From Escherichia phage UB, in the sequence record MH383160: a stretch of 64,000 bases of DNA; one strand, written 5' to 3'. The position numbers and the translations under genes were made by a program. This document shows, one piece after another, positions 11,009 through 64,000 of the stretch; the stretch's first letter is position 1; every line of letters starts with the position of its first letter. Below the pieces are notes generated by a model that was not told where the DNA came from, did no database searches, and saw nothing but the letters and a program-made list of their open reading frames with translations.

Positions 11009-11358
11009 TAGAAGTCTCCGCGAATTTTATCTCTACCATGAATAATGAGATGGATTAAGTATACAACTAACCAAATGAACAACCCAAAGAATACAATATA
11101 TTGTGAGATTGAGTTCAAGTGAGGATTAGCACAATAAATTAAGTGTGCCATAAGACCAACAATTGCAAACAAACCTTGAACAAGTGTGTAAAGAACTAGT
11201 GATGAATTCCTCACTGGATACAGTTTAAAAACAATTTTCTTTTTAAAATACCATAGTACTACAACTAGTGCATGATAAAAGAAAAAACCAAAAAGATAAA
11301 TCAAAGTAATACTAATCATTGTATCTGATTTAAAAAATTCTAACATTAGAATCCCCAT
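11008..11358 (-). CDS. small membrane protein, paralog of 11346..11687
   Basis: Shares ITLIYLFGFFFYH..LWYFKKKIVFKLY with neighbour. Confidence 0.65.
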   Translation of the reverse strand: MGILMLEFFKSDTMISITLIYLFGFFFYHALVVVLWYFKKKIVFKLYPVRNSSLVLYTLVQGLFAIVGLMAHLIYCANPHLNSISQYIVFFGLFIWLVVYLIHLIIHGRDKIRGDF

Positions 11359-11687
11359 TTAAAGTTATCACGAGCTTTAATAATAAAATACATAGTACAC
11401 ACCAATAACCAGACGATTAGTCCTGAAAACACAACATATTGTGTAATGTGTGGTGTATTATCAATTTGTAACATGTAAATCACATATGTCATCACACCAA
11501 ATAAAATAAACCCACCTTGTATAATGCTATATACAACTAAGAATACATTATCATACGAATACAATTTAAAAACAACTTTCCTTTTAAAATACCAAAGACT
11601 AATTACAATTGAATGATAAAACAAGAATACAAACATGTATATCAGTGTAATACCAAGCATTATATTAGATTCAAAAAACTCACGCAT
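11346..11687 (-). CDS. small membrane protein, paralog of 11008..11358
   Basis: ITLIYMFVFLFYH..LWYFKRKVVFKLY. Confidence 0.65.
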   Translation of the reverse strand: MREFFESNIMLGITLIYMFVFLFYHSIVISLWYFKRKVVFKLYSYDNVFLVVYSIIQGGFILFGVMTYVIYMLQIDNTPHITQYVVFSGLIVWLLVCTMYFIIKARDNFKWGF

Positions 11688-11752: not shown

Positions 11753-12523
11753 TTAAATTTTCTCAAGGAACAAGTTTTCGCACTGTTCTTCCCAATCGTA
11801 TGGGTTGTTGTTATATACTGCCGAAATCAACAGTGGCATACGCAGTGAAGGTGAACGAAGAGAATCTTCGTGCTTCAACATCCAGTTCAGAATTGCTTTA
11901 CTACCATTACGGTTAATACCCTTAGATTCTAAAATGTTAGTCTGATTCATCACGTTCTCAATGTGAATCATGATATCGCTTTTGGTCTGAATCTGTAAGT
12001 CAACGTATACAGAACGAGACATAAGAGCAGCATAGTGAGCAGACATTTTAGTTTTAGCTTTAGCATCTAATGCTAAATCTTTGTTCGTAATGAATACGAT
12101 GCGACCATTAAAATCAAAGCTATTAGGAATACCGTTAGTGGTTAAGTACTTAGAGCTAGTCATATAAGACACAGTACGCTTACCACTATCCAGCACTGCT
12201 TTGAGCAGGTTCATACCGTCTTCTGAATCAAAGATGCTGTCCATATCATCCAGTACTAATACGTTAGTGCTGTGACGATTCTTGTACAGAACTTCGTACA
12301 GAGCAAGAGTAGTCATCTTGCCACTGATAGTAGCTACGTTCCATTCTGCTGCGTCATGAGCTTTCTGGAGGCGTTTAGACAGGGTGTAAGTTTTACCAAC
12401 ACCAGGTGCACCGCTGACAACCATACTTTTTACAGTACTGCTATCGTCGAGCAAACACTCAAGAGCAACCATCATGGAGTTGAAGTTTTTCTGGATTTGA
12501 ATGCTACGTGCTTCTCTGGTCAT
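11753..12523 (-). CDS. P-loop NTPase (AAA-like ATPase)
   Basis: Walker A GAPGVGKT and Walker B VLVLDD. Confidence 0.7.
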   Translation of the reverse strand: MTREARSIQIQKNFNSMMVALECLLDDSSTVKSMVVSGAPGVGKTYTLSKRLQKAHDAAEWNVATISGKMTTLALYEVLYKNRHSTNVLVLDDMDSIFDSEDGMNLLKAVLDSGKRTVSYMTSSKYLTTNGIPNSFDFNGRIVFITNKDLALDAKAKTKMSAHYAALMSRSVYVDLQIQTKSDIMIHIENVMNQTNILESKGINRNGSKAILNWMLKHEDSLRSPSLRMPLLISAVYNNNPYDWEEQCENLFLEKI

Positions 12524-12949: not shown

Positions 12950-14413
12950 TTATAAAATTACTTCACCAAAAATACCATTAATATCACGTTCAATAATGTA
13001 CTCACCTTCATGTTTGGCTAAGAATTGTTTTATTACTTCAATTACATTTTGACGATGTATGTTGTTGTATGTTTCAGTATAACCATCACCTCTGTTATAA
13101 TAGCCAATATTTTTATGTGGTTTTCCACACAATGCAACAGTATGAACTTGTGTTTCTAACTCCGATGCCAAAAATCCCCCTTCTTCGGTGTGAAAAAAAA
13201 TAACTAATACATTAGTCCAAAAATTATCAACACCATACTCTTCTAAAAAAGATTTGTTAATTTTTTTAAGTCGGGGTTTGATACTGTTACCCTGTTGGGT
13301 TATTCCGAATTTATCCGATTCGTTTGTTTGATCAACGTTCATATATGAACGTGTAGGTTTGTTTTTCTTAAACCCGTACTCATTATACATTGAAAAACCA
13401 TATTCAAAACTGAAAAAATCTGCAATATTAATTTTTTGTTGAATTGAACTATCACTACGAGAATATAAAAACACACTACGGTAATTAGTGTATTCACCGT
13501 CCCAACCAATAAATGTAAACGTCACTTCATCAGTTGAGCGATTACATAATTCTTTTTTAATTTGATATTCACGCTGTTCTTTTGTCCAACGAAACCCGCC
13601 AGTACAGCGACAACTTAAATGCCCCTGTTTGAGTGTGTGCATTTCTTGCTCAAATTCACCAGTACATAAACCATTTTTTGTATATTCATCGTTTGCACAA
13701 ATTGGACATGAGTATACAAGTTTACTAAATCTCCCATAATCATTAACTGTATCACTACGCTTGAACGTGGTCTTTGGATGAAACTTACCAGTATTCATTA
13801 TTTCGTTAATGTGATTTTCCAATCCGTTATTGCTTTCACGATGATACTGTTTCTTTCTTTCATTCCCACATTTAACACATCCATCATTTGTACCATTCGA
13901 TCCAAATAAAATACCATTTATAGTTGCACTGTTCATGAGTTCATCTGGGTGATGTTCACATACAAGAGTTGGTTTATATGTATTACTTTTAATTATACCA
14001 GTTGGAATTGATAATAATTTCTTTCCAGTTTTTGAAATTTTTCTTTCTATTCGAATAATATATTGATAACGAGTCCATTTTGGTATCTCACTACAACCAC
14101 ATGGAATTATTGAATTCAAATATGACGATTGTGCAATAATATACACACCCAAACCATGCAATTGAACATCATTTGCACAAATTTTACAAATTTTAAGATA
14201 GAACTTAGCTTTGGTCTTTGGATTTCGAATTAATCCCAACAGACTTTCATCACATTCTGTATTAGTATCCTGCTCCAATTGATCAAATGAATCAGGAATT
14301 GGCAATTGTGGATGCTTTTCACGAAGAATGAATAACGAAATTCTAAATGCTTCTTCACTTTTTGCCAAGCTTAATGCATTTTCAACTTCAATTGAACGAT
14401 GTACTTTATACAT
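12950..14413 (-). CDS. hypothetical Cys-rich protein (possible zinc-binding / nuclease-like)
   Basis: 487-aa ORF with several CxxC pairs; no confident family assignment. Confidence 0.6.
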   Translation of the reverse strand: MYKVHRSIEVENALSLAKSEEAFRISLFILREKHPQLPIPDSFDQLEQDTNTECDESLLGLIRNPKTKAKFYLKICKICANDVQLHGLGVYIIAQSSYLNSIIPCGCSEIPKWTRYQYIIRIERKISKTGKKLLSIPTGIIKSNTYKPTLVCEHHPDELMNSATINGILFGSNGTNDGCVKCGNERKKQYHRESNNGLENHINEIMNTGKFHPKTTFKRSDTVNDYGRFSKLVYSCPICANDEYTKNGLCTGEFEQEMHTLKQGHLSCRCTGGFRWTKEQREYQIKKELCNRSTDEVTFTFIGWDGEYTNYRSVFLYSRSDSSIQQKINIADFFSFEYGFSMYNEYGFKKNKPTRSYMNVDQTNESDKFGITQQGNSIKPRLKKINKSFLEEYGVDNFWTNVLVIFFHTEEGGFLASELETQVHTVALCGKPHKNIGYYNRGDGYTETYNNIHRQNVIEVIKQFLAKHEGEYIIERDINGIFGEVIL

Positions 14414-23333: not shown

Positions 23334-24107
23334 TTATATATTACCATAGATATCCATCCTAGTCAATCTATATTTGTCATTATCAATGATAGTTAATAAT
23401 CTATCTATATCTTTTACGTCTATTGTTTCTGTATAACCACATTTAAACACTGATTTGTTCAAAAACTTACATTTTATTTCTTTTTTAATTATTTTTTCTA
23501 ATTCATTAATTAAATTTCCGTCATTGGAAAAATAACAAATATAAGGAACTGATCGATATTTGTTGGCATTATATTTTCTAAATCTATTTTTACAATTTCC
23601 TGTAATGCCAAATTTATATGATACTAAATTACCAATAGTATCATAAATTTCATTTATATATAAAAATCCAGGTTTGTTGATATCATAACCAGTCTTACTA
23701 CATGATGGACAATTTGTATTAGTATTAATAAAATGATTATAAGAACATTTCCAAGAAGGATGATCAATTATATCACAGTTCAATTCAAGAATAGTGTTTA
23801 TAGAGCCATTAAAAATATATTCTTTACAAGTATATTTTTTCTCTTTACATTTTTGTATAACTCTATCACGGGCAGTTTGTTCTTTGAGAATGTTTCTCCC
23901 ATTACATTCAGGACACCCAGTTCCTTTGTAAATAAACTTTTTAAAAGAACAATTCCATCGTTCGTGTTCTGGATTGGGGCATTTTAAAATTAGTCTTGTG
24001 TTCGTGTTTATATAAACAAATTCTTCACATTTGTAGTTTTTGTCATTGCATATTTTATATACTTTTTCTTCAGCTTCTTTTTGTGTCAATTTAATACCAC
24101 TAGCCAT
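23334..24107 (-). CDS. T5orf172/MUG113-type (GIY-YIG-like) domain protein with Cys-rich zinc-ribbon-like repeats
   Basis: GFLYINEIYD..YKFGITGN..RFRKY core; N-terminal CPNPEH..C, GCPECNG. Confidence 0.6.
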   Translation of the reverse strand: MASGIKLTQKEAEEKVYKICNDKNYKCEEFVYINTNTRLILKCPNPEHERWNCSFKKFIYKGTGCPECNGRNILKEQTARDRVIQKCKEKKYTCKEYIFNGSINTILELNCDIIDHPSWKCSYNHFINTNTNCPSCSKTGYDINKPGFLYINEIYDTIGNLVSYKFGITGNCKNRFRKYNANKYRSVPYICYFSNDGNLINELEKIIKKEIKCKFLNKSVFKCGYTETIDVKDIDRLLTIIDNDKYRLTRMDIYGNI

Positions 24108-24683: not shown

Positions 24684-25157
24684 TTAGTACTGATCAAGTT
24701 CAGATGTAAAAATGAATGCATCCATGTCTTCCAACGTAAGTTTTAAGTCTGGTACATACTTAAGAATAACGCACTCTGGCTTCTTAATAGCAGCTTGATA
24801 AGCAGCAATGGCAAGGGATTCCAACTGCTGTGCTGTATAATTTTTACGTTCTGCATTAAAAACTTTGTTTTTGATATCACCACCTGGGAGTTTTTCAAAC
24901 TCACGCATAACTGCAGTAAGAACATCGTCAGCAGTGTTACTATATACCCATTGGGGTAATTGCATTACATTATAAATCACACCACTATCATCCATCAAAG
25001 AGATCCATTTGTACCCATCACTAGCACTGAACAAACGCCCTTTTAGTACTGTGTTATTAGTTAAATTTACAAATGCAAAAATATCTTGTTCGTTAAGTTC
25101 AATACTATTAACATTTACCCAACTCATTACGATTCCCCATTCATAAATCACGAACAA
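24684..25157 (-). CDS. hypothetical protein
   Basis: 157-aa ORF. Confidence 0.55.
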   Translation of the reverse strand: MFVIYEWGIVMSWVNVNSIELNEQDIFAFVNLTNNTVLKGRLFSASDGYKWISLMDDSGVIYNVMQLPQWVYSNTADDVLTAVMREFEKLPGGDIKNKVFNAERKNYTAQQLESLAIAAYQAAIKKPECVILKYVPDLKLTLEDMDAFIFTSELDQY

Positions 25158-25737
25158 TATTCATTAAACACAATTTAGGTTTTATAGCATTCAACACCCA
25201 TATGCATTCTTTGTAAGTAGCTATTATATCATCTAAATGCTCAGTTACAATGCTTTCTTGAAAATATTCTTCATCATTGAGCTTTGCTAATTTAGTAACA
25301 TCACACGTAGGCACTATAGGTCTGGATTGTACACCCATTCCATTATTGATATTAGTGAAATGTACAAAATGGTACTTCACAACACCTTTATCTAGATTTA
25401 TTATACATGACAAATTTTCCAACTCAGTTAGTTTTTTATTACAAGTAACATTAATGAAACCAGCATTATAGGCTCTATAATCATCTACTGATATCTCAAA
25501 ATCATTACGTTCAAATATAAGTGAAATGAGTTGGTCCAGTGGTTTGACATTCATATATTTTAATGAATTTACGTATGATACTTCAATCTTAGATGAAATT
25601 ATCTTTTTACTAAGTGCCGTTAAATCTTTGTTAGATTTAACTGTTAAAACAATAGGTTTAAACCTAGAACTTTTGTTCTTTTTTGATACTTTAAAACGAC
25701 CTTTACGATTCATAATTTCCTCAATTAACAATTTCAC
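25141..25737 (-). CDS. hypothetical protein
   Basis: 198-aa ORF. Confidence 0.55.
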   Translation of the reverse strand: MKLLIEEIMNRKGRFKVSKKNKSSRFKPIVLTVKSNKDLTALSKKIISSKIEVSYVNSLKYMNVKPLDQLISLIFERNDFEISVDDYRAYNAGFINVTCNKKLTELENLSCIINLDKGVVKYHFVHFTNINNGMGVQSRPIVPTCDVTKLAKLNDEEYFQESIVTEHLDDIIATYKECIWVLNAIKPKLCLMNIVRDL

Positions 25738-30530: not shown

Positions 30531-30752
30531 TCATTCCTCATCACTTTCAGTTAGTATAATGCTATGTACAGCTTCCACATAGCGGTGTGTTTTGGGTGTG
30601 TTATACTTTGTAATTTCATCAAACAATTTAAACAGTGCATCTACTTCACTAAGAGCACGAATGAATACATCCATCTTGGTGACTACTCTGGAAAACCCGC
30701 GTATGTTATTAAATTCAGAGACGTGTTCATACACAACATAGTATCTATTCAT
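30531..30752 (-). CDS. hypothetical protein
   Basis: 73-aa ORF. Confidence 0.5.
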   Translation of the reverse strand: MNRYYVVYEHVSEFNNIRGFSRVVTKMDVFIRALSEVDALFKLFDEITKYNTPKTHRYVEAVHSIILTESDEE

Positions 30753-31267
30753 ATATTAAAAAGTTCCATGAATTCATTGAATAAAGAAGTTCTAATGCAC
30801 ATAACAAATTCAAAATCAACATCGATGGTGTCAAGTAGTTTGAACAACTTTGGTACTAATGGGTCATTCACCTCAAAGTTATGAATCAAACTTTGTTGAA
30901 ACACATTTTCTTCAGTACTATAATCAATAACAAAATATTCAGCAATACCAGGTGGTGTGTAAACATCATATAAAATATGGCGGTGATGATTTGTTTTAGA
31001 ACTAGGGGAATATATAAGTTCTATTTCATAAGATTTATCAGCACTGCGTGCGTAACAAACAATATCAGTACTCGTTATTTCTGAACCATCACTTCTCTCT
31101 GAAAAACAAACATCAGCATAGCGTTTTCCAGAGAGATTCAAAAGGTCATGAGTTGTTTTACCATAACAGAAATCAGTTTCAATGCGTATCACATCTTGAT
31201 ATTCAATTGGTCTTGTATCGCGGCGTTCACGATTAAACACTAATTTCAACAACTCATTAATATCCAT
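30749..31267 (-). CDS. hypothetical protein
   Basis: 172-aa ORF. Confidence 0.6.
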   Translation of the reverse strand: MDINELLKLVFNRERRDTRPIEYQDVIRIETDFCYGKTTHDLLNLSGKRYADVCFSERSDGSEITSTDIVCYARSADKSYEIELIYSPSSKTNHHRHILYDVYTPPGIAEYFVIDYSTEENVFQQSLIHNFEVNDPLVPKLFKLLDTIDVDFEFVMCIRTSLFNEFMELFNI

Positions 31268-44933: not shown

Positions 44934-45380
44934 TTAGTTATATGCTGTGAATAGGTCAATGTTTTTATCATCTACACTGATTAATTTACCAGTTGAACTA
45001 ACAAACACAATATTACCACCAGGGGTGATTTGAACACGCTGGTTTACTGAATATTGATCACTAAGGTTATAATTAGCCCATTCAACTACATAACGCTGTT
45101 CAACACCGTTAGTATCATATAGATAAACGTGTGTAACGTCACGCATTTTTAAACGGTCTAACAGTGTAGAGTTGTCCATGAAATCCGATGGTGTATTGCT
45201 GCGTAATGCAATACCGAACTCACCGATAACAGTACTAATTGTCAGTCCGTTTGAAAAACGGCTACAAAGAGTTTTCTCATCAGCAATATGCATCCATAAA
45301 ACATTCTTTACATCAATATCAACAAATTCACAGTTTTCAAAAACCAAACCTACTTTGGAAACTTTACCATTAAATTGCAT
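44934..45380 (-). CDS. hypothetical protein
   Basis: 148-aa ORF. Confidence 0.6.
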   Translation of the reverse strand: MQFNGKVSKVGLVFENCEFVDIDVKNVLWMHIADEKTLCSRFSNGLTISTVIGEFGIALRSNTPSDFMDNSTLLDRLKMRDVTHVYLYDTNGVEQRYVVEWANYNLSDQYSVNQRVQITPGGNIVFVSSTGKLISVDDKNIDLFTAYN

Positions 45381-45389
45381 TAGTAACTC

Positions 45390-45824
45390 CTATTTTTTAT
45401 ATTTTAAAATTAAATCACTCACGGCTTTCATTAGCTTATATGGAATAGCTAATTCTTGAACAGTACTTTCCATAAAATGTTCTTCTTCTGTATCATAAAA
45501 TGTTGAACTAAAGTGTTCACAATCATCTATACTATCATAAAAAGAAGACGTAAGTTTATCAACAATGACAGTGATTTGTTTGTCAGTTTTGGCACATCCT
45601 ACCTGAACGGTTAATCCAATATCATCAGCCTCTACACGAATTATAAACGAATTATTAGTATAGTTCAGCCAACAATCTTCACCAAAGTATACAACACTGT
45701 GTTTCTTCTGAAATGAAGTTGCGGTGTTAAGAACACCAATAACAACATCAACTGTTTTTTCATTTAAAATATTAGACATTTTTATTCCTGCTTCGTATGT
45801 TTCGTGAAATCTCAAATATTCCAT
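45390..45824 (-). CDS. hypothetical protein (weak member of C-terminal FQ-x-S motif family)
   Basis: 144-aa ORF. Confidence 0.55.
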   Translation of the reverse strand: MEYLRFHETYEAGIKMSNILNEKTVDVVIGVLNTATSFQKKHSVVYFGEDCWLNYTNNSFIIRVEADDIGLTVQVGCAKTDKQITVIVDKLTSSFYDSIDDCEHFSSTFYDTEEEHFMESTVQELAIPYKLMKAVSDLILKYKK

Positions 45825-46200
45825 TCAACTGCTCAACAGTTAAACCCTGTAAATCGTAAACTGTTGATAGTTGAAAGAACATCTCTGAATCTATAGTATC
45901 ATGTTCAATTGGAAGACTCAAGAGGTCTTTATTAATAAAATAATCATATGTTCGAATTGTCAAAGAATCACCAAAGATATCAATGTAAAATTTCGGAACA
46001 TTATGTAACGAAACATCTATTAATATGTTTTCAGCATATCTACAAGAAATTTTAGAATTATTTTTATAAGATTGGTATGAAAAATTATAAGGTTCATCGA
46101 CCGATGTGTATGATGAGGTATCACCTTCGGAAAATATTACACCACATTCAATAAGATGTGTTAACGACTTAGGTGGAATTTTTAACATTTCACTTCCCAT
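45772..46200 (-). CDS. paralog-family protein (C-terminal FFQLSTVYDLQGLTVEQL motif)
   Basis: C-terminal motif shared with 46190, 47329, 47687, 53805, 60085, 60908, 61360. Confidence 0.6.
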   Translation of the reverse strand: MGSEMLKIPPKSLTHLIECGVIFSEGDTSSYTSVDEPYNFSYQSYKNNSKISCRYAENILIDVSLHNVPKFYIDIFGDSLTIRTYDYFINKDLLSLPIEHDTIDSEMFFQLSTVYDLQGLTVEQLNGIFEISRNIRSRNKNV

Positions 46201-46609
46201 GCTTACTCATATTACTACGGATCACCCCACTAAGAAAACATATTTTCCTTAATGTATCATAACTGATATTTGTAAGATCATGTACAAAATTCAACTGCAA
46301 GTACATTTCTTCAGTTAATTGATTAAATGTATCATCAACATGAATGTTAGTATGTTCCGTTATATCTATTTCTATATTATTTTCCCAAATATCAATGCTA
46401 ACAGCATAGTCTGATGTATGTCTGGATTGAACTGAAATAAAAATATTATTACTGTTGTATAATGTCTCTGTGTATCCATTCAAAAATGATCCAACGACAA
46501 CATCAAAAATGCCATCTCTAATTGGGTTTTTTGTTTCAAACGTATCACTACAAACTTGACGGTATACAATGTCAACATACTTATCAATTAAAGTAAACAA
46601 ATAACTCAT
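46190..46609 (-). CDS. paralog-family protein (LQLNFVHDLTNISYDTL motif)
   Basis: Start set to ATG 46609 with AGGTGA RBS; listed 46618 start is GTG. Confidence 0.6.
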   Translation of the reverse strand: MSYLFTLIDKYVDIVYRQVCSDTFETKNPIRDGIFDVVVGSFLNGYTETLYNSNNIFISVQSRHTSDYAVSIDIWENNIEIDITEHTNIHVDDTFNQLTEEMYLQLNFVHDLTNISYDTLRKICFLSGVIRSNMSKHGK

Positions 46610-46626
46610 TGCATTCACCTATATAA

Positions 46627-46655
46627 GAAAAAAGGCCGATTCATCGAATCAGCCT
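46627..46655 (-). terminator. intrinsic terminator
   Basis: AGGCTGATTCGATGAATCGGCCT + U-run on minus strand. Confidence 0.55.
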
Positions 46656-46843
46656 TAAGTATAACACAGTAGAAGTTAAAAAGTCAACTTCTAAATTACA
46701 GCATCCAAGAGGAATAAAAAGATACTGTTAGAGGGTAACGAATATAATGAATTTGAGGGTAATATCATTATACGTAAAAAAGTGATAGCTTCTATACATA
46801 AGGAGGAATCAGTACTGACTAGAAGCTATCGGGTTAAACGATT

Positions 46844-47128
46844 TCAGTACTGAGTGTTTAGTTTAGGATGAGTATTTCCATCTTCGATTTGTTTTAGAAT
46901 CGAGTCACGAATTTCTACTGCCCCTTGATAACTATATTTATCTTTTGGGATCACCCATGTATATTCGCCATCAGTGGTTTTAAAATCAATACATGGATTA
47001 TCCCTGTATTCAGATGCAATGATTGCAATAACATGTAATGAATTCAATGAATGATTTGTATAAGGATAATTGTTATTATCTCTGAACGTGAATGTTTTAA
47101 GTTCATCAGGTGCAACAATGAATTCCAT
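46844..47128 (-). CDS. hypothetical protein
   Basis: 94-aa ORF. Confidence 0.55.
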   Translation of the reverse strand: MEFIVAPDELKTFTFRDNNNYPYTNHSLNSLHVIAIIASEYRDNPCIDFKTTDGEYTWVIPKDKYSYQGAVEIRDSILKQIEDGNTHPKLNTQY

Positions 47129-47319
47129 TATTCATCCTCGTACTTCTTGAATGGTGGAACATCTACCTTGAAGTCTTTGCACATCTTAGTTGTACGAACT
47201 TCAGTATTGTTGTGATAATTTTTCTTAAATTCATAAGAAACATAATTACGAATACCAGGTGTATGAATAATAGCAAGAACCAATGTACGACCAAACAAGC
47301 ATAATAAATTCCAGAACAT
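47128..47319 (-). CDS. hypothetical small protein
   Basis: 63-aa ORF. Confidence 0.45.
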   Translation of the reverse strand: MFWNLLCLFGRTLVLAIIHTPGIRNYVSYEFKKNYHNNTEVRTTKMCKDFKVDVPPFKKYEDE

Positions 47320-47328
47320 ATGAATCTC

Positions 47329-47694
47329 CTAATTGTGGGTTTTAACCAAACGTGCGACAGCTAGTATAGCATTAACCTCATCCAATGTCAACCCACCAAT
47401 GTCATTAATCATTGAGTACTGAAATAGTGATTCTTCAGTGTAATTGTAATCATGAGAAGCAATAAAGATTGCTGGTTTAGATGCATCCAAAATTATCTTT
47501 GTCATTGTAGTATATATATCAAATTGATACAATAGATTTTCACCTGTATATGCTACGTAGATATTATTTGAATAGGATGGATGTACCATTGTAAAACCAT
47601 CATAACATAATATTTTTATGTTCGGATCGTCAAAATTGCCTGTATAAAGGTTATTACAAACATCTTGCATTATACGTACTATTAGACTAGTCAT
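47329..47694 (-). CDS. paralog-family protein (FQYSMINDIGGLTLDEVNAIL motif)
   Basis: Shared C-terminal motif. Confidence 0.6.
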   Translation of the reverse strand: MTSLIVRIMQDVCNNLYTGNFDDPNIKILCYDGFTMVHPSYSNNIYVAYTGENLLYQFDIYTTMTKIILDASKPAIFIASHDYNYTEESLFQYSMINDIGGLTLDEVNAILAVARLVKTHN

Positions 47695-48112
47695 TTAAAG
47701 GATTTAGAACCTCTTCTGGAATCAACTTTTGAACTTTAAGTATAGCTTTAATGTCCTCAAATGTTAATCCTAATGTGTCGTTAAGGAGGCAGTACTGGAA
47801 GAATTTTTCTTCAGTATCAATATCGTTAACATTCAATTCAATTGATTCATCATCATAATCATAATCTTCATTATCACATTCATAACTTCTGAATATAACT
47901 TTTTCAAAATACACATCAAATGAATAAAAATGATTATTGAATTCATAACCAAGAAAAATATTAAAACATTTACTCAAATCTGTGGTTTGATTCAAATCTG
48001 GATCATAGCAAAATACTCTAACTTCACCAATATCTTCTAATTGTACATCATGCAGTGACCATGCGTTGTTTTTTAATACATAGTTCACCATTTTAACAAT
48101 GTTGTATGTCAT
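47687..48112 (-). CDS. paralog-family protein (FFQYCLLNDTLGLTFEDIKAIL motif)
   Basis: Shared C-terminal motif. Confidence 0.6.
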   Translation of the reverse strand: MTYNIVKMVNYVLKNNAWSLHDVQLEDIGEVRVFCYDPDLNQTTDLSKCFNIFLGYEFNNHFYSFDVYFEKVIFRSYECDNEDYDYDDESIELNVNDIDTEEKFFQYCLLNDTLGLTFEDIKAILKVQKLIPEEVLNPLND

Positions 48113-48118
48113 AGTGTA

Positions 48119-48208
<90 letters not shown>

Positions 48209-48229
48209 AGAAGTAAGATAACCAACAAG

Positions 48230-48393
<164 letters not shown>

Positions 48394-48436
48394 ATTGACC
48401 TCTTTAGATTAAAACCCCCAGTTTTCTTCTTGAACC

Positions 48437-48534
<98 letters not shown>

Positions 48535-48553
48535 GCATACTCGAAGTACCTCT

Positions 48554-48668
<115 letters not shown>

Positions 48669-48703
48669 ATAAGCTACTGAATCGGGAATCACAACCTCCC
48701 CTC

Positions 48704-48955
<252 letters not shown>

Positions 48956-48967
48956 TTATAATACCTG

Positions 48968-49643
<676 letters not shown>

Positions 49644-49904: not shown

Positions 49905-50421
<517 letters not shown>

Positions 50422-50439
50422 ATACCCAACTTTAATTAA

Positions 50440-50765
50440 AAAAATGGATGGTGACGCTTTTAAACGCCGCTGTTAATTCAGCTTTATAACCATCCGTTTT
50501 AACTTGCCTTTCGGCTACCTTGACGTGGGGCGTACAGGCTGCTAAAAGCAACTTCTGTAAACATATTTCCACGCCTTACCCTTTTAAATAAAAGTCCATC
50601 CGGTTTTCCAGTTTGGTGAAGGACTGTCACCTCTAGTTTCAACCTGCTAGTCAAGTAATAATTGCCTATCGTCCAATTATCAAACCCGTCTAGGTTAACA
50701 TTCACCACTTCCTAGAGTACCAGAGATCTTGTTCTGGATAGCATCGACGTAACTTACACCATATA
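50440..50765 (-). ncRNA. candidate structured non-coding RNA (unclassified)
   Basis: G+C-enriched ~330-bp block with many short inverted repeats; only ORF has an alternative start, no RBS and atypical codons; promoter directly upstream. Confidence 0.3.
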
Positions 50766-50774
50766 CGTCTGATT

Positions 50775-50803
50775 GTGGAATTCATTATATCAGTACTGAA
50801 CTA
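50775..50803 (-). promoter_or_regulatory. extended -10 promoter (TTCAGTACTGATATAAT)
   Basis: TGATATAAT with conserved palindrome in spacer; weak -35. Confidence 0.45.
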
Positions 50804-50992
50804 TTCATCAGTGCTCAAATAAATTGTATCAGTTTTACATTTATACTGAATACGATGATCAATAAACGTACCTTGTTTATAAAGATCTGCATTTTTTACA
50901 TCAGTAATGATTTCAACACCAACATATTGTTTAAAAAGAACTTCTGCTTCTGGATATTGTTTAAGAATTTTAATCAAATCTTTAGCTTTCAT
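50801..50992 (-). CDS. small protein, MKAKDLIK-family
   Basis: N-terminus MKAKDLIKILKQYPEA. Confidence 0.55.
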   Translation of the reverse strand: MKAKDLIKILKQYPEAEVLFKQYVGVEIITDVKNADLYKQGTFIDHRIQYKCKTDTIYLSTDE

Positions 50993-51022
50993 TTAATCCC
51001 ACTCGTTTATGTGTTAAGATAC

Positions 51023-51063: not shown

Positions 51064-51225
<162 letters not shown>

Positions 51226-51229
<4 letters not shown>

Positions 51230-51390
51230 GTTCGTACCATTATTTCAATAAAGAACCACGGATACGCTTCATGGTTTATAAGTTTATCGTATTCTGCTGG
51301 GTCTGACATGATTTCCCAATGATACTTTCTCCAGTTACCGAAACCTGCATATCTAAAATTAATGTCATTCATCCATTCTTCATGCGTCAT
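51226..51390 (-). CDS. small MTHEEW-family protein (54 aa)
   Basis: N-terminus MTHEEWMNDI. Confidence 0.5.
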
Positions 51391-51441
51391 GGTTTTAACC
51401 TTTAATTAAAATTATCATAGGCATAAATTTAATTACTATCA

Positions 51442-51984
<543 letters not shown>

Positions 51985-51998
51985 AATATTATATTTTA

Positions 51999-52070
51999 TA
52001 AAGGGCCGGAGAATCGAACTCCGATTGGATTCTTAGAAGGAATCTGTTTTATCCATTAAACTAGCCCCTC
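51999..52070 (-). tRNA. tRNA-Arg (anticodon UCU)
   Basis: Acceptor GAGGGGC/GCCCUUU with G-U pairs, D-arm GUUUAAUGGAUAAAAC, anticodon stem GAUUC/GAAUC loop CUUCUAA, T-arm CGGAGUUCGAUUCUCCG. Confidence 0.7.
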
Positions 52071-52113
52071 AGTACTAATAATTATATCACATCTTTATGT
52101 GATGTCCAATTAT

Positions 52114-52386
52114 TTATGATTCGGTTTCGGGATTAAATTTTATAAATTCATCTTTATATTCATCTTCAATCGCAATATCTTCTACTTCTTCAGGCCAAAT
52201 CGTAGTGTCTCCTTGATAAAAGCGATAATTATCAAATACTGCACTACGCGTTCTTCCCTGTTCCCAGCCAATCGTACAGTCATGATATACATCCCCACTA
52301 CTTGTACGAATACTAATGGTGTCTTGAGTTTCATAAAGAACTTCAATGCGTGTGTTACGATTTACGTTGAATTTTTCAAAATGCAT
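52114..52386 (-). CDS. hypothetical protein
   Basis: 90-aa ORF. Confidence 0.55.
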   Translation of the reverse strand: MHFEKFNVNRNTRIEVLYETQDTISIRTSSGDVYHDCTIGWEQGRTRSAVFDNYRFYQGDTTIWPEEVEDIAIEDEYKDEFIKFNPETES

Positions 52387-52439
52387 AATATTATCCTCAT
52401 CTAGAACCAGTGATAATCATTATATAATGAATTAATGAT

Positions 52440-52658
52440 TTATGCAAGTGTTTTAGATACACCGACACCAATAATTCCAGTGATATCGATATGGATATTG
52501 GCAAGTTGATTACTATCATATGGGTTTGTTTCTGTAATAACCAATGTTGTATCATTGACTAAAACCACAGTACCTTTTACACGATAACCATGTAGTAGTA
52601 CTTGAACCTCATCTTCAGGTTTTAATGATTGAATAACTTCAAATAAAGTTGTTTCCAT
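52440..52658 (-). CDS. hypothetical protein
   Basis: 72-aa ORF. Confidence 0.5.
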   Translation of the reverse strand: METTLFEVIQSLKPEDEVQVLLHGYRVKGTVVLVNDTTLVITETNPYDSNQLANIHIDITGIIGVGVSKTLA

Positions 52659-52673
52659 TTTTGTATTCCTTGT

Positions 52674-52856
52674 TTAGTTTTGATTATTTGACTTTCTAAA
52701 TGCCAGTTCGCATATAAACCAGGGTTTTCTGGTATCCAAAACATATGACCTGAAAAGATTTTCATCTCTTAATATATCATAATGTACCTGACGAATGCCA
52801 TTCCCAAAGCAGTCATGTTCTTTATGCTGTTTGGACATCCATTCTTCGTGTGTCAT
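52674..52856 (-). CDS. small MTHEEW-family protein
   Basis: Start set to ATG 52856 (MTHEEWMSKQ); listed 52874 start is TTG. Confidence 0.5.
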   Translation of the reverse strand: MTHEEWMSKQHKEHDCFGNGIRQVHYDILRDENLFRSYVLDTRKPWFICELAFRKSNNQN

Positions 52857-52857
52857 T

Positions 52858-53073
52858 TTATGTATCCAGTACAATTAAGTGCTGCATCTCTTCTTTTGTA
52901 AAGAAAGCACTGTCATGAACAATAGAACCAGTCTTATCAACTACATAGTACAGGTTTCCATATTGTTGAACATCAATTCCGTCAATTTCAATTCGTGGAA
53001 AATTTTGGACAATACAGTCTGCACCGAAAACCTCACCAAAAAAGTTTCCTGCTGGATTGATAATGACTTTCAT
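52858..53073 (-). CDS. hypothetical protein
   Basis: 71-aa ORF. Confidence 0.5.
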   Translation of the reverse strand: MKVIINPAGNFFGEVFGADCIVQNFPRIEIDGIDVQQYGNLYYVVDKTGSIVHDSAFFTKEEMQHLIVLDT

Positions 53074-53091
53074 ATTAAATCACCTTTATTG

Positions 53092-53193
<102 letters not shown>

Positions 53194-53198
53194 TCTTA

Positions 53199-53375
53199 CT
53201 ATTTTTTGTCTCTAATAGCAAGCTCGTAGATGAACCAGTGGTTGGAATCTTCGTCCAAAACCAATGATTCGAACGTTTTTTTATCGTTCAAAACATCATA
53301 ATGGCCTTGGCGTATACCAAATCCAAAATGATCATGTTTATATTTTAGTGACTCTATCCATTCTTCATGTGTCAT
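53199..53375 (-). CDS. small MTHEEW-family protein
   Basis: Start set to ATG 53375 (MTHEEWIESL); listed start is TTG. Confidence 0.5.
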   Translation of the reverse strand: MTHEEWIESLKYKHDHFGFGIRQGHYDVLNDKKTFESLVLDEDSNHWFIYELAIRDKK

Positions 53376-53453
53376 TTTATGTATCCAGTTCAATTAAGTG
53401 TTTCATTTATTCTTCTGTAAAGAAAGCATTGCAATGGACAATGGAAAAGGTTA

Positions 53454-53633
53454 TTATATTTTTTTGTCTCTAACCGCAAGCTCATAGATGAACCAACGAT
53501 TTCCATTCTCATCTAGTACATATGATTCGAACTTATATTTGTCTCGTAAAATATCGAAATGACCATCAATAAATCCATTTCCAAACTGGTCATAACGTTT
53601 TTTCATCATTGCCATCCATTCTTCATGTGTCAT
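53454..53633 (-). CDS. small MTHEEW-family protein (59 aa)
   Basis: MTHEEWMAMMKKRYDQFGNGF...; ATGA overlap with upstream stop. Confidence 0.5.
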   Translation of the reverse strand: MTHEEWMAMMKKRYDQFGNGFIDGHFDILRDKYKFESYVLDENGNRWFIYELAVRDKKI

Positions 53634-53815
53634 CTCTTAATATCCATAACGGCTATACTAAAATATGTACCAAAATCATCACAATTGATAATGTTGTTAT
53701 AGTACTCAATTGGGTTACGCAATGATATATACAATTCAAGCTTAAAATAGTATATATCTGCTGCATTTATATTATAGTGTAGATTAAACCACTCATCAAA
53801 TGTCTTAGGCTGCAT
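53630..53815 (-). CDS. hypothetical small protein
   Basis: 61-aa ORF. Confidence 0.45.
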   Translation of the reverse strand: MQPKTFDEWFNLHYNINAADIYYFKLELYISLRNPIEYYNNIINCDDFGTYFSIAVMDIKR

Positions 53816-54209
53816 TATATTTATCTTTATAAAAATCCATGATTTTAGTCAACAGTACTGCAATCGTATAATCTAAATCAGGATAAAGTAAATTGTACTG
53901 AAATTCTTCCTCAACACTATAGTTAGTGGTACAGTACTGGTAATCTTTATAACCTATTGAAAAATAATTCGGATACAATGTACAACGAAAGCGATAAGCT
54001 TCATCTGTCATATAATCATTGTATTCAACACAGAAGTATAGTGATTTTGAATTTAATTCGATAAGCTCAACGAATCCATCAGGTAATGAATGGTTATAAA
54101 TTACTGAATCTTCATTAAACCATTCATAGTATTTTTCCAAAAAATCACTAATGGATACATCCAGACTTTGTATAGGTGGAGTTATGATAATTTGAACTTC
54201 TTTATTCAT
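53805..54209 (-). CDS. hypothetical protein (C-terminal EFQYNLLYPDLDYT family-like)
   Basis: 134-aa ORF. Confidence 0.55.
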   Translation of the reverse strand: MNKEVQIIITPPIQSLDVSISDFLEKYYEWFNEDSVIYNHSLPDGFVELIELNSKSLYFCVEYNDYMTDEAYRFRCTLYPNYFSIGYKDYQYCTTNYSVEEEFQYNLLYPDLDYTIAVLLTKIMDFYKDKYNAA

Positions 54210-54709
54210 TTCGACCCCTTACTATATTTCACGTATGGGCTATCATACAGATCATAACTTTTTTGTGCACGTTCTTTTCGGCGTTCATACATGATTCTAT
54301 CATACTCTTTAGCTTTCTGATTTGCTTCATTATACAATTTTAAAATTAGCAAAAATGCATCAAGATCGGGATAGTTTACTGGATTGATAGTACTCAGCAT
54401 AAATCGTTCTTCTTCAGTTCTAGCTAAGTCAAATTCATACTTAATAGTTTTATACCCACTCCATTTATATATATGCGTTACTTTATTAGTAAGTACATTA
54501 TATTCAACGAAGTCAGTACTACCATCAAGTACACGAGTAATCTTAATAGATGTACCAATGACAATCTGCACAGAACTCATTTCTGAAGTTTTAAAGTAAT
54601 AAATGTTATTACGGCGAAGATTAACTTCTCGATCTCCAATGCGAACATGCTTAATAACTTCCATTAATGGTTCTGGGACACCACGAATCGGCATGTTAGT
54701 ATTCCTCAA
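54206..54709 (-). CDS. hypothetical protein
   Basis: 167-aa ORF. Confidence 0.6.
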   Translation of the reverse strand: MRNTNMPIRGVPEPLMEVIKHVRIGDREVNLRRNNIYYFKTSEMSSVQIVIGTSIKITRVLDGSTDFVEYNVLTNKVTHIYKWSGYKTIKYEFDLARTEEERFMLSTINPVNYPDLDAFLLILKLYNEANQKAKEYDRIMYERRKERAQKSYDLYDSPYVKYSKGSK

Positions 54710-60084: not shown

Positions 60085-60528
60085 TTACTCCTTAAAGTAG
60101 ATATCACGAATTTGTTTAATCATCTCTAACTCTTGAAGTCCTATCATACCAAAGTCTTCTTGTATTGTCAACTGCTGAAAGTACATTTCTTCTAAATTAT
60201 TGTACGGAATCTCAACAAGATTCAAAGGCTCACTTTCCACACGATAAATTGTATCTTGTACATCATGTTTTTCGATATGAATACTAAATGTATCTTTTTG
60301 AATTCTAAATTTATAAAATGTTTGATTTGTTGTAAACAAACCAACTTTAGGATGGAATCCCATTTGAATACACAAACAATCTTCATCCTTATATTTCAAG
60401 TATATAGCTTTTGACGTTGCTAGTACTTTAGATTTTGGGAAATAAAAATCACCCATCAGCTTCTGACGTTTCCAGTCCTCATATACAACTGGATGCTTAA
60501 CCTTCTTCAATTGGTGCAGTACTGTCAT
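60085..60528 (-). CDS. paralog-family protein (YFQQLTIQEDFGMIGLQEL motif)
   Basis: Shared C-terminal motif. Confidence 0.6.
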   Translation of the reverse strand: MTVLHQLKKVKHPVVYEDWKRQKLMGDFYFPKSKVLATSKAIYLKYKDEDCLCIQMGFHPKVGLFTTNQTFYKFRIQKDTFSIHIEKHDVQDTIYRVESEPLNLVEIPYNNLEEMYFQQLTIQEDFGMIGLQELEMIKQIRDIYFKE

Positions 60529-60908
60529 AGTTTTTTCCAGTCCAATGAATCGAAATCGATTTGTTCAGGATTATCAACAGCGACAACTCGTGCATTATGA
60601 AGAGTTTCAAAGTAGCCGTTCCACGGTGTACGTACTGGAATTTTTTCATCTCCAATTTTTACAAAGAAAGAGAATTCACATGACATTGGATCAAACCATT
60701 CTTTATGTTTGGCTTCATCGATTATTGTCGCACGTTCGTTACTATATGCATCATCGAGTTTCTTAAAGAATACCCAATGCTCTTTCAAAGACTGTAATGC
60801 TACAACTGCCTCATCCTTTGATTCCCATTGAACATCCAATGTATTGGTAACTGAATCTTCAGTTTCAGTGTCCCCTGTAGTGTAATGTACTTCAATGCTG
60901 TATTTCAT
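60525..60908 (-). CDS. hypothetical protein
   Basis: 127-aa ORF. Confidence 0.55.
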   Translation of the reverse strand: MKYSIEVHYTTGDTETEDSVTNTLDVQWESKDEAVVALQSLKEHWVFFKKLDDAYSNERATIIDEAKHKEWFDPMSCEFSFFVKIGDEKIPVRTPWNGYFETLHNARVVAVDNPEQIDFDSLDWKKL

Positions 60909-61363
60909 TAATCATCGCCTTTTAGTAATTTACAAATTTCAATCATATGATAATAACATGTATTCCAAAATTGTCCATTAGTACTTCCAACATCATGCAC
61001 AGTACTTTGTTGGAAAACATATTCATCGTTGAACATCATTTTAATATCATCAATGTAAAATTCTGGTTTTGAATCATTATTGTATTCAATACTCGTTTCA
61101 CCATCTGGATCAAGTGAAATTGATGATATGTCGTGAATTCCTCTCGGATTTGTTGGATAAATTCTCAACGTAAGAGGATAGAAGTCTGGATCGGTTTCAT
61201 AAGTATATTCGATTATGTAATAACCATCACCAGTAATTGATTGATATTTAAATGTAGTTTCAATTGAATTTGAGATGTTAAATCCCAGTTTCTTTATCTC
61301 ATCTACATGAGATAATATTTTATGTAAAGTTCCTAAAACATGAATCAAATTATCAATTTTCAT
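60908..61363 (-). CDS. paralog-family protein (VFQQSTVHDVG motif)
   Basis: Shared C-terminal motif. Confidence 0.6.
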   Translation of the reverse strand: MKIDNLIHVLGTLHKILSHVDEIKKLGFNISNSIETTFKYQSITGDGYYIIEYTYETDPDFYPLTLRIYPTNPRGIHDISSISLDPDGETSIEYNNDSKPEFYIDDIKMMFNDEYVFQQSTVHDVGSTNGQFWNTCYYHMIEICKLLKGDD

Positions 61364-61902
61364 TTACGAACCTTTGAAAAGTTTAGTTTAAAAGATTTAC
61401 CAAATTCCATTGTAGCTTTACCCAGATTGTTAATATTTTCCTTTAACATTTCTTGCATCTTATTCATACTTTCAATCCAAGCTTCTTCTTCGATACGAAG
61501 AATTGGTCGCAATCGTTCCTGAATATCGATAAAACGTGTATTGAGTTCTACTAATGATTCATATGTGAAATCTTTCATGTCGATAATAGTACTTCGTTGA
61601 AAGAATTCTTCTTCGGATAAATTACTTAAAATGATTTTATCACGACCAATAGATAATGTCAATTCATCATCTTTATTTTTTTTAATTACAATACTAACAG
61701 GTGTTTTTAATGTAATGCAAATATCATGATTATTAAATGTTTCAGTTTGGTTTGACATTCTGAATTGAAGTTTCCCAGATAAAGCATGTACTGGTGATGG
61801 TTTCTTTTTACCAGTAATAACATCTTCCCATGAATCGAGAATATTATTAATAATTTTAACATAAGGAATTGGCATATATGCACCTATGAAAAATCCACGC
61901 AA
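61360..61902 (-). CDS. paralog-family protein (EEEFFQRSTIIDMKDFTYESL motif)
   Basis: Shared motif. Confidence 0.6.
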   Translation of the reverse strand: MRGFFIGAYMPIPYVKIINNILDSWEDVITGKKKPSPVHALSGKLQFRMSNQTETFNNHDICITLKTPVSIVIKKNKDDELTLSIGRDKIILSNLSEEEFFQRSTIIDMKDFTYESLVELNTRFIDIQERLRPILRIEEEAWIESMNKMQEMLKENINNLGKATMEFGKSFKLNFSKVRK

Positions 61903-63917: not shown

Positions 63918-64000
63918 TTAATTGAACTCTACTTCTGGATAATGATTATAGAACATCTCACGAACTGCGTCAAGATGTTCTTGAAATTGTTTTATATCTT
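63918..64000 (-). CDS. 3' end of a minus-strand gene whose start lies beyond the window
   Basis: Open frame from window edge to stop at 63918-63920 (...EMFYNHYPEVEFN*). Confidence 0.4.
   Translation of the reverse strand, partial: DIKQFQEHLDAVREMFYNHYPEVEFN

Follow-up and report, generated by a model that had tools for sequence, protein, structure and literature searches.

A multigene family of small, mostly acidic proteins with a conserved C-terminal motif in RaK2-like jumbo phages

In T4-type phages, small early 'host-takeover' genes are transcribed from strong sigma-70 promoters. Large eukaryotic DNA viruses carry multigene families, e.g. MGF110/360/505 of ASFV and the poxvirus ankyrin-PRANC proteins, and the immunity proteins of polymorphic toxins (SUKH/SMI1-KNR4 type) are small alpha+beta proteins encoded in tandem arrays of diverged paralogues. 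MAM33/p32 is a strongly acidic protein of the mitochondrial matrix, a doughnut-shaped homotrimer whose fold combines a single helix, an antiparallel sheet of seven strands and a pair of C-terminal helices. Here we analysed a window of 64,000 nucleotides (the whole stretch of DNA studied) from Escherichia phage UB (MH383160), an Asteriusvirus jumbo phage with about 99% identity to PBECO4 over this stretch. On the minus strand, small genes and tRNA genes form a long block, with homing endonucleases also among its small ORFs; it contains tandem and dispersed copies of one gene family. For related phages it has been remarked that paralogues make up about 10% of RaK2 genes and that 22 CBB ORFs are paralogous; the literature search returned generic remarks of this kind and no description of the family.

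A sequence-only reading of this DNA had listed eight main proteins with a shared C-terminal motif (45772, 46190, 47329, 47687, 53805, 60085, 60908 and 61360) and two weaker ones (45390 and 55313), and had proposed all-against-all comparison and HMM building as the check. Both were carried out, and the family holds up under decoys. All-against-all BLAST linked only 47329, 47687 and 45772, and HMM iteration restricted to the window stopped at six members. The set was extended beyond the BLAST trio by iterative HMM searches controlled with reversed and shuffled decoys, and the larger member set needed relatives from Salmonella phage Munch and Erwinia phage Hallingskeid. For the strictest test, an HMM was trained on 88 sequences, a set that excluded the window's own proteins and any sequence with ≥40% identity to one of them, and scored against all window ORFs and 10 decoys of each (about 2,100 decoys). 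Real members scored 15–55 bits, while decoys reached at most 9.2 bits. The members, named by their first coordinate, are as follows, with E values of the strictest HMM and, where given, of the leave-one-out (LOO) test.

8203..8865, minus strand: tentative member, 220 aa, basic N-terminal extension; full-length at decoy level (E 0.016)
25141..25737, minus strand: member with basic N-terminal extension; likely start 25713 (190 aa); E 3.4e-4, LOO E 1.2e-4
30749..31267, minus strand: member, 172 aa; E 1e-6, LOO E 1.2e-4
45390..45824, minus strand: member; likely start ATG at 45779 (129 aa), PHROG match from residue 16; E 1.8e-11, LOO E 8e-9
45772..46200, minus strand: member; likely start ATG at 46188 (138 aa), orthologues P0018 and P0061 being 138 aa; E 1.2e-16
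46190..46618, minus strand: member; likely start ATG at 46609 (139 aa), on the basis of orthologue P0121 and an upstream AGGTGA; E 5.7e-15
47329..47694, minus strand: member, 121 aa, the modelled protein; E 1.3e-15
47687..48112, minus strand: member, 141 aa, net charge −19; E 2.6e-14, LOO E 1.6e-10
50032..50421, minus strand: tentative member, 129 aa; E 1.4e-3
53805..54209, minus strand: weakly supported member, 134 aa; E 6.4e-4
54206..54709, minus strand: member with basic C-terminal tail; likely start 54694 (162 aa); E 2.5e-10, LOO E 6e-8
60085..60528, minus strand: member, 147 aa; E 3.9e-13, LOO E 7e-14
60908..61363, minus strand: member, 151 aa; E 3e-10, LOO E 2e-5
61360..61902, minus strand: member with C-terminal helical extension; likely start 61875 (171 aa), orthologue P0130 being 171 aa; E 8e-12
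63918..64000, minus strand: 3' end of a further member (last 26 codons and stop), cut by the window end

At E ≤ 1e-6 the strictest HMM recovered 45772, 46190, 47329, 47687, 60085, 60908, 61360, 45390, 54206 and 30749, and recovery was weaker for 25141, 53805 and 50032. Seven of the eight main proteins are thus solid; 53805 is weak, since in the leave-one-out test, which otherwise agreed with the strictest HMM, it scored 4.5 bits, below the decoy maximum of 9.1. The supposedly weaker 45390 proved to be solid, whereas 55313 (E 0.02) is unsupported, being level, like 8203, with the best decoy (E 0.019). Three clear members, 54206, 30749 and 25141, were absent from the earlier list. The tentative 50032 has a G17 orthologue scoring E 2e-4, and the fragment at the window end is 100% identical to the C-terminus of a G17 protein (L001 36120-36560, E 1.4e-11). 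At least 11 solid copies are present in the 64-kb window.

When the parts were scored separately, C-terminal parts alone gave 18–48 bits against at most 9.7 bits for shuffles, while no N-terminal part scored above its own shuffles with the sole exception of 46190. Nearly all detectable similarity lies in the C-terminal 36–45 residues, so the description of a constant C-terminus behind N-terminal two-thirds diverged beyond detection stands. The C-terminal parts of 25141, 53805 and 8203 scored 18 bits (7.9 for shuffles), 10.8 bits (6.3 for decoys) and 10.1 bits (5.8 for shuffles), respectively. These results confirm that the family of diverged small proteins is real.

The F-Q-x-S motif of the earlier reading was recovered and extended to [ST]-E-E-E-[FY]-F-Q-x-S-T-[VI]-x-D...[LI]-[TSD]-x-[ED]. 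In the modelled copy it is located as follows.

47377..47439, minus strand: motif of the 47329 protein, residues 86-106, TEESLFQYSMINDIGGLTLDE, translation checked

Across 80 members, the motif columns are conserved as T/S 82%, E 86%, E 86%, F 97%, Q 86%, S 89%, V/I/L 98% and D 85%, and the polar residues E87, E88, Q92, S94 and D98 at 85–89%. Conserved positions in the N-terminal part are Y31, aromatic in 97% of members, I58 and D63. Between copies, the DNA of the motif is only 55% identical and the conserved Ser is encoded by TCA in some and by AGT/AGC in others, which argues that the motif is neither a DNA repeat nor low complexity. The low-complexity explanation, which the earlier reading had named as a possible refutation, is thereby ruled out; the motif is conserved at the protein level. 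A broader reading, in which the family is a chance resemblance, a low-complexity artefact or a set of non-coding ORFs, could draw on the Glu run that opens the motif and on the N-terminal parts, which alone lack detectable similarity. It is already refuted by the separation of members from decoys together with a confident structural model, purifying selection, the Ser codon-family switch and orthologues across genera, and its probability is practically nil. The motif also resembles a potyvirus/3C-type protease site (E-x-x-Y-F-Q|S). This resemblance was set aside because the motif is part of a predicted helix within a folded domain; such a site is further disfavoured by the residue after Q, which is Q/Y/L and not G/S, and we know of no 3C-like protease in RaK2-like jumbo phages.

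AlphaFold was run on one paralogue (47329) with an 80-sequence alignment (model mab1c9fb39ca8); the result from a 16-sequence alignment (pLDDT 52) was left out of the fold searches. The predicted structure is a single compact alpha/beta domain (pLDDT 93.1, pTM 0.85) with a helix at 4-15, five strands between 26 and 79 and helices at 87-96 and 104-120, that is, a helix at the N-terminus, then an antiparallel sheet of five strands, then a helical hairpin at the C-terminus. No significant match was obtained in the PDB, and the model is without a close solved relative. In the model, the motif takes in helix 2 with its N-cap, the loop and the helix 3 N-cap. Hydrophobic residues are conserved at strand positions 45/47/49, 56/58/60 and 65/67, and the alternating positions vary; the former are predicted to face inward, while the outward-facing strand positions and the loops are hypervariable. 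Judging from this alternation, the two C-terminal helices probably pack on one face of the sheet. Because the model is compact and Y31, I58 and D63 are conserved in the N-terminal part, all copies probably share one fold.

The earlier picture of a variable domain plus a constant module does not agree with this model: because the hairpin is part of one compact domain, the conserved segment looks like scaffold core rather than a separable module. The corresponding functional explanation is an adaptor or oligomerisation module, in which the C-terminal hairpin docks one common partner (perhaps a hub of the host, a machine of the phage or fellow members of the family) and the variable remainder recruits targets. 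It would account for the concentration of almost all detectable conservation at the C-terminus, for polar residues conserved at 85–89% when members are only about 10–30% identical to the modelled copy, and for one G17 member with an exact internal duplication of the conserved segment in which the reading frame is kept. Against it, the hairpin is modelled inside the domain, and the conserved polar pattern is a textbook match to a helix N-capping box (S/T/D N-cap, Glu at N1–N3) with hydrophobic staple, which speaks for a structural function no less than for docking. Partial burial is suggested by the substitutions Q->M (14%) and T->L (29%), no domain fusions occur (all 76 representatives have 87–207 aa) and no candidate partner is known. 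We consider an adaptor module unlikely. The polar residues could still mark a shared functional site rather than pure scaffold, and the near-invariant helix 2 surface E-E-x-[FY]-F-Q-x-S could dock all members to a single machine of the host or phage, a version that we regard as quite doubtful. Protease, RNA polymerase and translation apparatus are candidates for such a partner; the capture of different targets would then fall to the hypervariable sheet face.

The family is unnamed in curated libraries. No Pfam, NCBIfam or PADLOC model exists for it, and the PADLOC-DB defence models gave two isolated matches (E 0.003–0.01) among 80 members. Its members are spread over at least 26 PHROGs of unknown function (phrog_17453, 24941, 23322, 24321, 24510, 12674, 35192, 21500, 23719 and others). 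Full-length matches to phrog_17453 were obtained for 47687 (E 7e-58), 47329 (E 6e-55) and 45772 (E 1e-11), and 45/80 family members match this PHROG, while window members outside this trio each have their own. PHROGs thus contain the window proteins as sequence members, but split one superfamily and are silent on function, motif and structure. In word-indexed protein searches, nearly all matches were Asteriusvirus orthologues (about 100 for 47687), without names or Pfam domains. Searched exhaustively with the profile, 1.84 billion cluster representatives yielded 76 clusters, and nearly all of 69 newly found sequences inspected carry the motif. A degenerate DNA pattern of the motif matched in IMG/VR only contigs of 345–366 kb, and tblastn with the consensus matched 59 of 50,697 phage records, of which the 30 listed are all jumbo phages of 310–384 kb. 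Judged by these searches, the family is confined to RaK2-like jumbo phages of 310–384 kb among the matches listed, with orthologues conserved across genera.

Gene content of the family is flexible between related phages and its genes are in a variable region. The close relative G17 has 19 copies in 40 kb, and the copy set of phage A4 differs from that of the window. G17, 121Q and A4 each have a 117-aa member; the site in phage UB corresponding to that of G17 is occupied by unrelated DNA (50424-51013).

Between 8200 and 64000, 31 near-consensus sigma-70 sites (≥11/12 matches) were found on the minus strand and 1 on the plus strand, against an expectation of about 2 per strand. Two elements lie next to family genes.

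48437..48465, minus strand: sigma-70-type promoter close to consensus (TTGACA-17-TATTAT); tRNA-Thr and the genes 47687 and 47329 lie downstream
46632..46656, minus strand: intrinsic-terminator-like hairpin, 11-bp stem followed by a T run

The hairpin is located between the 48112-46844 unit and the unit from 46618 downstream, and in the G17 record a terminator is annotated in the matching interval, between the orthologues of 46844 and 46190. The virion proteome of phAPEC6 comprises 62 proteins detected by mass spectrometry (PMC7247149). None of the family orthologues gp083c, 084c, 087c, 088c, 120c and 121c is among these 62 proteins, and the whole interval from gp078c to gp149c contributes no virion protein (PMC7247149). 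Packaging of the proteins in the virion and their injection with the DNA might be expected for small proteins of a jumbo phage with an inner body (PMC7247149), some of them with basic tails, but both absences from the virion make it highly improbable.

The mean net charge of the family is −8.7, compared with +0.25 for neighbouring ORFs; its mean pI is 5.1–5.3, with pI<5.5 in 81% of representatives. Members might act as p32/MAM33-like acidic oligomers, chaperoning basic nucleic-acid-binding proteins or serving as decoys for them (nucleoid or restriction proteins of the host and the phage's own DNA-condensation proteins have been named as targets). Because 4 of the 12 window members tabulated for charge, including the tentative 8203, are basic (pI about 9) through appended tails, a uniform 'acidic decoy' picture misfits some copies. 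Kinship with p32/MAM33 was rejected at the sequence level: MAM33 (Pfam PF02330) matched 0/80 members at E≤1, and hhalign of the family profile against human p32 (approximate sequence) gave a probability of 0.04. We rate a p32-like role as very unlikely. Compared with phage A4, family genes are under purifying selection (dN/dS 0.11–0.57), the median identity is 71% for both family members and neighbouring genes, and the family does not evolve faster (omega 0.27 vs 0.19 for neighbours, p=0.25). Since neither identity nor dN/dS sets the family apart from its neighbours, there is no specific arms-race signature.

We hold the descriptive account, covering extent, motif and modelled fold, with high confidence: a clade-specific multigene family whose products are small (about 120–200 aa), mostly acidic and non-virion, and belong to RaK2-like jumbo phages. 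From the model, the motif would be mainly folding core, with capping box and hydrophobic staple clamping the helices onto the sheet, and the exposed sheet face and acidic loops would form a diversified working surface. The proteins may be made early by the host RNA polymerase, and each paralogue may bind a target of its own, a protein of the host or of a competitor, and thereby inhibit or redirect it in the course of takeover or counter-defence. The term 'host-targeting effector' is plausible on the basis of the early-type promoter block, the non-virion status, the acidity and the variable region; we infer diversified early binders of host proteins tentatively, as a reading that may well prove wrong. 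RaK2-like jumbo phages give a visible share of their putative early region to one fold. The profile, diagnostic motif and confident model unify dozens of 'hypothetical proteins' and, for phages under consideration as therapeutics, supply candidates to screen for host takeover or counter-defence. A shared docking site in the conserved helix, if there is one, would amount to a new organising principle for phage effector families and would give the substrate-adaptor multigene families of large eukaryotic viruses a counterpart among phages.

Compared with known systems, the best PDB sequence match of the family profile was 6s0x_v (E 0.25), the C-terminal domain of long HPF, a ribosome hibernation factor. 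It was rejected: the match is limited to the capping-box helix 'SEEAVLQMNLL', and that domain has a strand-helix-three-strand fold where the phage model has a helical hairpin. MAM33/p32 (C1QBP) shares acidity with the phage family, which is mostly acidic with basic exceptions, but has seven strands instead of the five predicted for the modelled copy, and the likeness is below the usual significance level. SUKH/SMI1-KNR4 arrays are likewise small alpha+beta proteins in tandem diverged arrays; SUKH Pfam models matched 1/80 members (SUKH_6, sub-threshold E 0.021), and a Pfam scan of the ten largest ORFs in the 8–44 kb part of the window found no toxin domain. ASFV MGF and poxvirus ankyrin-PRANC proteins similarly show lineage-specific tandem expansions in variable regions with a constant and a variable part. 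This is an analogy without homology: F-box/PRANC-like adaptors have a separable C-terminal docking box, whereas the constant part of the phage family appears structurally integrated in one domain. The T4-type early genes likewise form dense one-strand arrays of small ORFs with tRNA genes, homing endonucleases and sigma-70 promoters, and encode non-virion proteins. No homology of the family to any T4 protein was found, and, unlike the T4-type early genes, the phage UB family represents one fold amplified to more than a dozen diverged copies.

We showed that the diverged small proteins sharing the C-terminal motif [ST]-E-E-E-[FY]-F-Q-x-S-T-[VI]-x-D...[LI]-[TSD]-x-[ED] form a real family, strongly amplified and restricted to a single phage clade. 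All family ORFs concerned (named by their lower coordinate) lie on the minus strand. Pairwise BLAST among the 254 window ORFs of at least 50 aa linked only 47329 with 47687 (E 3e-11) and 45772 with 47329 (E 3e-5). Iterative HMM searching within the window, run against reversed and shuffled decoys, converged at six ORFs (47687, 47329, 45772, 46190, 60085 and 61360), and in a tblastn with the 47687 protein as query, other jumbo phages (~350 kb) matched weakly over the C-terminus. When the window ORFs were pooled with those from 40 kb each of Salmonella phage Munch and of Erwinia phage Hallingskeid, the iteration reached 39 members and the best decoy never fell below E 0.002. Leave-one-out testing supported 11 ORFs of the window (E ≤ 1.2e-4), all of which beat 300 of their own shuffles; 53805 failed. 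For the strictest test, the HMM was built from 88 sequences that came from outside the window and stayed below 40% identity to every window protein; it gave the following scores:

45772, 47329, 46190, 47687, 60085, 61360, 45390, 54206, 60908 and 30749 (-): members, E 1e-16 to 1e-6
25141 (-): weaker, E 3e-4
53805 (-): weaker, E 6e-4
50032 (-): weaker, E 1.4e-3

ORFs 8203 (E 0.016) and 55313 (E 0.02) were level with the best decoy (0.019). By this HMM with decoys, the member list proposed by the sequence-only reading was essentially right, except that 53805 is weak, 55313 is unsupported, and 54206, 30749 and 25141 had been overlooked. The final 26 codons of a further copy were present at 63918-64000, and the close relative G17 had 19 members within 40 kb, seven of them just past the window end.

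The motif consensus was derived from 80 diverse members and numbered on the 47329 protein:

Helix 2 start: hydrophobic residue 85, T/S-86 (82%), E87 (86%), E88 (86%), E89 (50%), F/Y90 (73%)
Motif middle: F91 (97%), Q92 (86%, otherwise M), S94 (89%), T/L95, V/I/L96 (98%), D98 (85%)
Motif end: L/I/F102, T/S/D103, E/D105 (75%), followed by an amphipathic helix

Each protein was cut at the motif start and the two parts were scored separately against shuffles. The C-terminal 33-85 residues alone scored 18-48 bits versus at most 9.7 bits in shuffles, while the N-terminal parts alone, with the exception of 46190, were no better than shuffles; in quantitative terms, the claim of a constant C-terminus behind N-terminal two-thirds that have diverged thus holds. 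A DNA repeat as the source of the motif was rejected, since motif DNA identity between copies was 55% and the serine codon families differed, TCA and AGT/AGC both being used for the conserved serine. As members beat decoys in the HMM tests and the motif DNA is not a repeat, an artefact is essentially excluded. Separately, a 193-aa G17 member (stretch L001, 39421-40002) carried an exact internal tandem duplication of ~59 residues including the whole motif, with 'DENLLNIKVAPSND...FFQQSLVYDFRTVTHSHIKFI' present twice, which looks like a very recent, in-frame event.

When 1.84 billion cluster representatives were searched exhaustively with the profile, 76 clusters emerged at E ≤ 1e-3, all of 87-207 aa; the motif was found in nearly all of the 69 new sequences inspected, which were mostly metagenomic, on contigs of up to 362 kb. 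The model from a 16-sequence alignment was too poor to use (pLDDT 52). With an 80-sequence alignment, the 121-aa 47329 protein was modelled as a single compact domain with pLDDT 93.1 and pTM 0.85 (five of five models 92-93), a confidently predicted fold without close solved relative:

Helices: residues 4-15, 87-96 and 104-120
Main strands (five): residues 26-32, 44-51, 54-61, 64-68 and 76-79

Conserved hydrophobics occupied strand positions 45/47/49, 56/58/60 and 65/67, alternating positions were polar and variable, and residue 31 (Y31) was aromatic in 97% of members. The alternation fits a predicted two-layer sandwich, in which three helices would cover one sheet face and the opposite face would be exposed and hypervariable. 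The motif matched a textbook helix start, with hydrophobic N', S/T/D N-cap, Glu at N1-N3 (capping box) and aromatic N4 (hydrophobic staple), and a further S/T/D N-cap, with acidic residues at N2/N3, opened helix 3. Given this pattern and the single compact predicted domain, the constant segment reads better as the folding core of one domain than as the separable C-terminal module proposed earlier. The adaptor or oligomerisation role suggested with that module seems unlikely, even though the polar motif residues are conserved beyond strict scaffold need. Besides the folding-core reading, a p32-like acidic decoy or chaperone was considered: mean net charge was -8.7 in members versus +0.25 in neighbouring ORFs, and 4 of the 12 tabulated window copies had basic tails. 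We regard this weaker option as improbable.

The coding region of the family was shown to be early-type, non-virion and variable. Window 45000-49000 shared 99.1% identity with Escherichia phage PBECO4, the figure for further Asteriusvirus jumbo phages such as G17, phAPEC6, Sharanji and 121Q being 94-99%, and all genes concerned are annotated as 'hypothetical protein' in PBECO4/Asteriusvirus records. In 45390-46618, 54206-54709, 61360-61902 and 25141-25737, the start of the longest possible ORF overlaps an upstream gene; judged by the lengths of orthologues and by Shine-Dalgarno-like sequences, translation probably begins at internal ATGs (45779, 46188, 46609, 54694, 61875 and 25713). The small genes among which the family lies form a long block on the minus strand; six tRNA genes are scattered through it, and it also encodes a phage sigma factor, a cytosine methyltransferase and an HNH endonuclease. 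Between 8200 and 64000, sigma-70 promoters close to consensus (≥11 of 12 matches) numbered 31 on the minus (coding) strand, eight of them perfect 12/12, versus one on the plus strand, with ~2 expected per strand. One lies upstream of tRNA-Thr, 47687 and 47329; downstream of 46844 there is a terminator-like hairpin. These predicted sites are a very strong and strand-specific sign that the host polymerase transcribes the whole block, and this bias suggests that the family block is transcribed early by host RNA polymerase. Virion packaging is essentially excluded, as the phAPEC6 orthologues gp083c, 084c, 087c, 088c, 120c and 121c are missing from 62 mass-spectrometry virion proteins, with zero virion proteins between gp078c and gp149c (PMC7247149).

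Compared with the divergent Asteriusvirus A4, the region was mosaic throughout (amino-acid identity 27-100%) and the family genes were no outliers, with a median identity of 71%, the same as their neighbours; dN/dS of 0.11-0.57 indicates purifying selection. Beside 45390, A4 carries a different set of family copies. A 117-aa member was present in each of G17, 121Q and A4; in a replacement cassette, G17 stretch L001 holds it at 23403-23848, and at 50424-51013 the window has unrelated sequence, in which there are two short ORFs (50499-50708, 50801-50992).

Other features of the window were also recorded:

33-836, 908-2083, 2093-3280, 3362-4171, 4552-5721, 5793-6998, 7058-7294 and 7326-8222 (+): second paralogue family within 33-8222, eight ORFs (seven of 267-401 aa and one 78-aa fragment), pairwise identities of 25-38%; their positions and sizes make them probable counterparts of the phAPEC6 virion-associated 'DNA condensation proteins' gp003-gp010
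51065-53633 (-): third family, five very small proteins of 54-66 aa (51065, 51226, 52674, 53199, 53454), mutual identity up to 62%, with tRNA-Arg and tRNA-Gly interleaved
48740-48955 and 50801-50992: small proteins with a common N-terminal 'MKAK(E/D)LIK(V/I)L' (63% identity over 19 residues); with 48968-49369, whose beginning is similar by eye, they may form another small family
11008-11687 (-): small tandem paralogues 11008/11346, 48% identity
18569-19604 (-): small tandem paralogues 18569/18915/19266
12950-14413 (-): 487-aa protein with a CapR homology domain (E 2e-23)
11753-12523 (-): adjoining 256-aa AAA-type ATPase; these two are among the few block ORFs with any Pfam match
49911-50002 (-): tRNA-Ser (ARAGORN) with the unusual anticodon ACT and an unmodified-looking A at position 34, annotated identically in the G17 record

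Among 2.9 million IMG/VR contigs, the back-translated pattern T-E-E-E-[FY]-F-Q-x-S-T was found 11 times, and every contig that carried it measured 345-366 kb. A 42-aa consensus matched 59 of 50,697 phage records, named as Escherichia, Klebsiella, Salmonella, Erwinia, Yersinia and Pectobacterium phages and one Xanthomonas phage; among the matches listed (30 of 59), all were jumbo phages of 310-384 kb. Pfam, NCBIfam and PADLOC matched no member except for isolated sub-threshold hits, PHROGs spread members over at least 26 groups, all of unknown function, and the best profile hit among PDB sequences (E 0.25) was to a helix of a ribosome hibernation factor. BFVD matches were solely uncharacterised proteins of Escherichia phage UB, CBB, RaK2, fHe-Yen9-04, pEa_SNUABM_47 and GAP32.

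Tentatively, and with slightly less than even confidence in the whole, we propose that the conserved hairpin would serve mainly as scaffold, that the exposed sheet face and loops would be the diversified surface, and that the proteins may be made early and bind proteins of the host or of competitors. Nothing observed so far points to an unusual mechanism. A literature search for the family or motif found no description, only generic statements on paralogues, such as about 10% of proteins in RaK2 (PMC3622015) and 22 paralogous ORFs in CBB (PMC5259590). The family merits a database entry, as a genuine protein family that had no name before and is of the same kind as the lineage-specific multigene families of large viruses.
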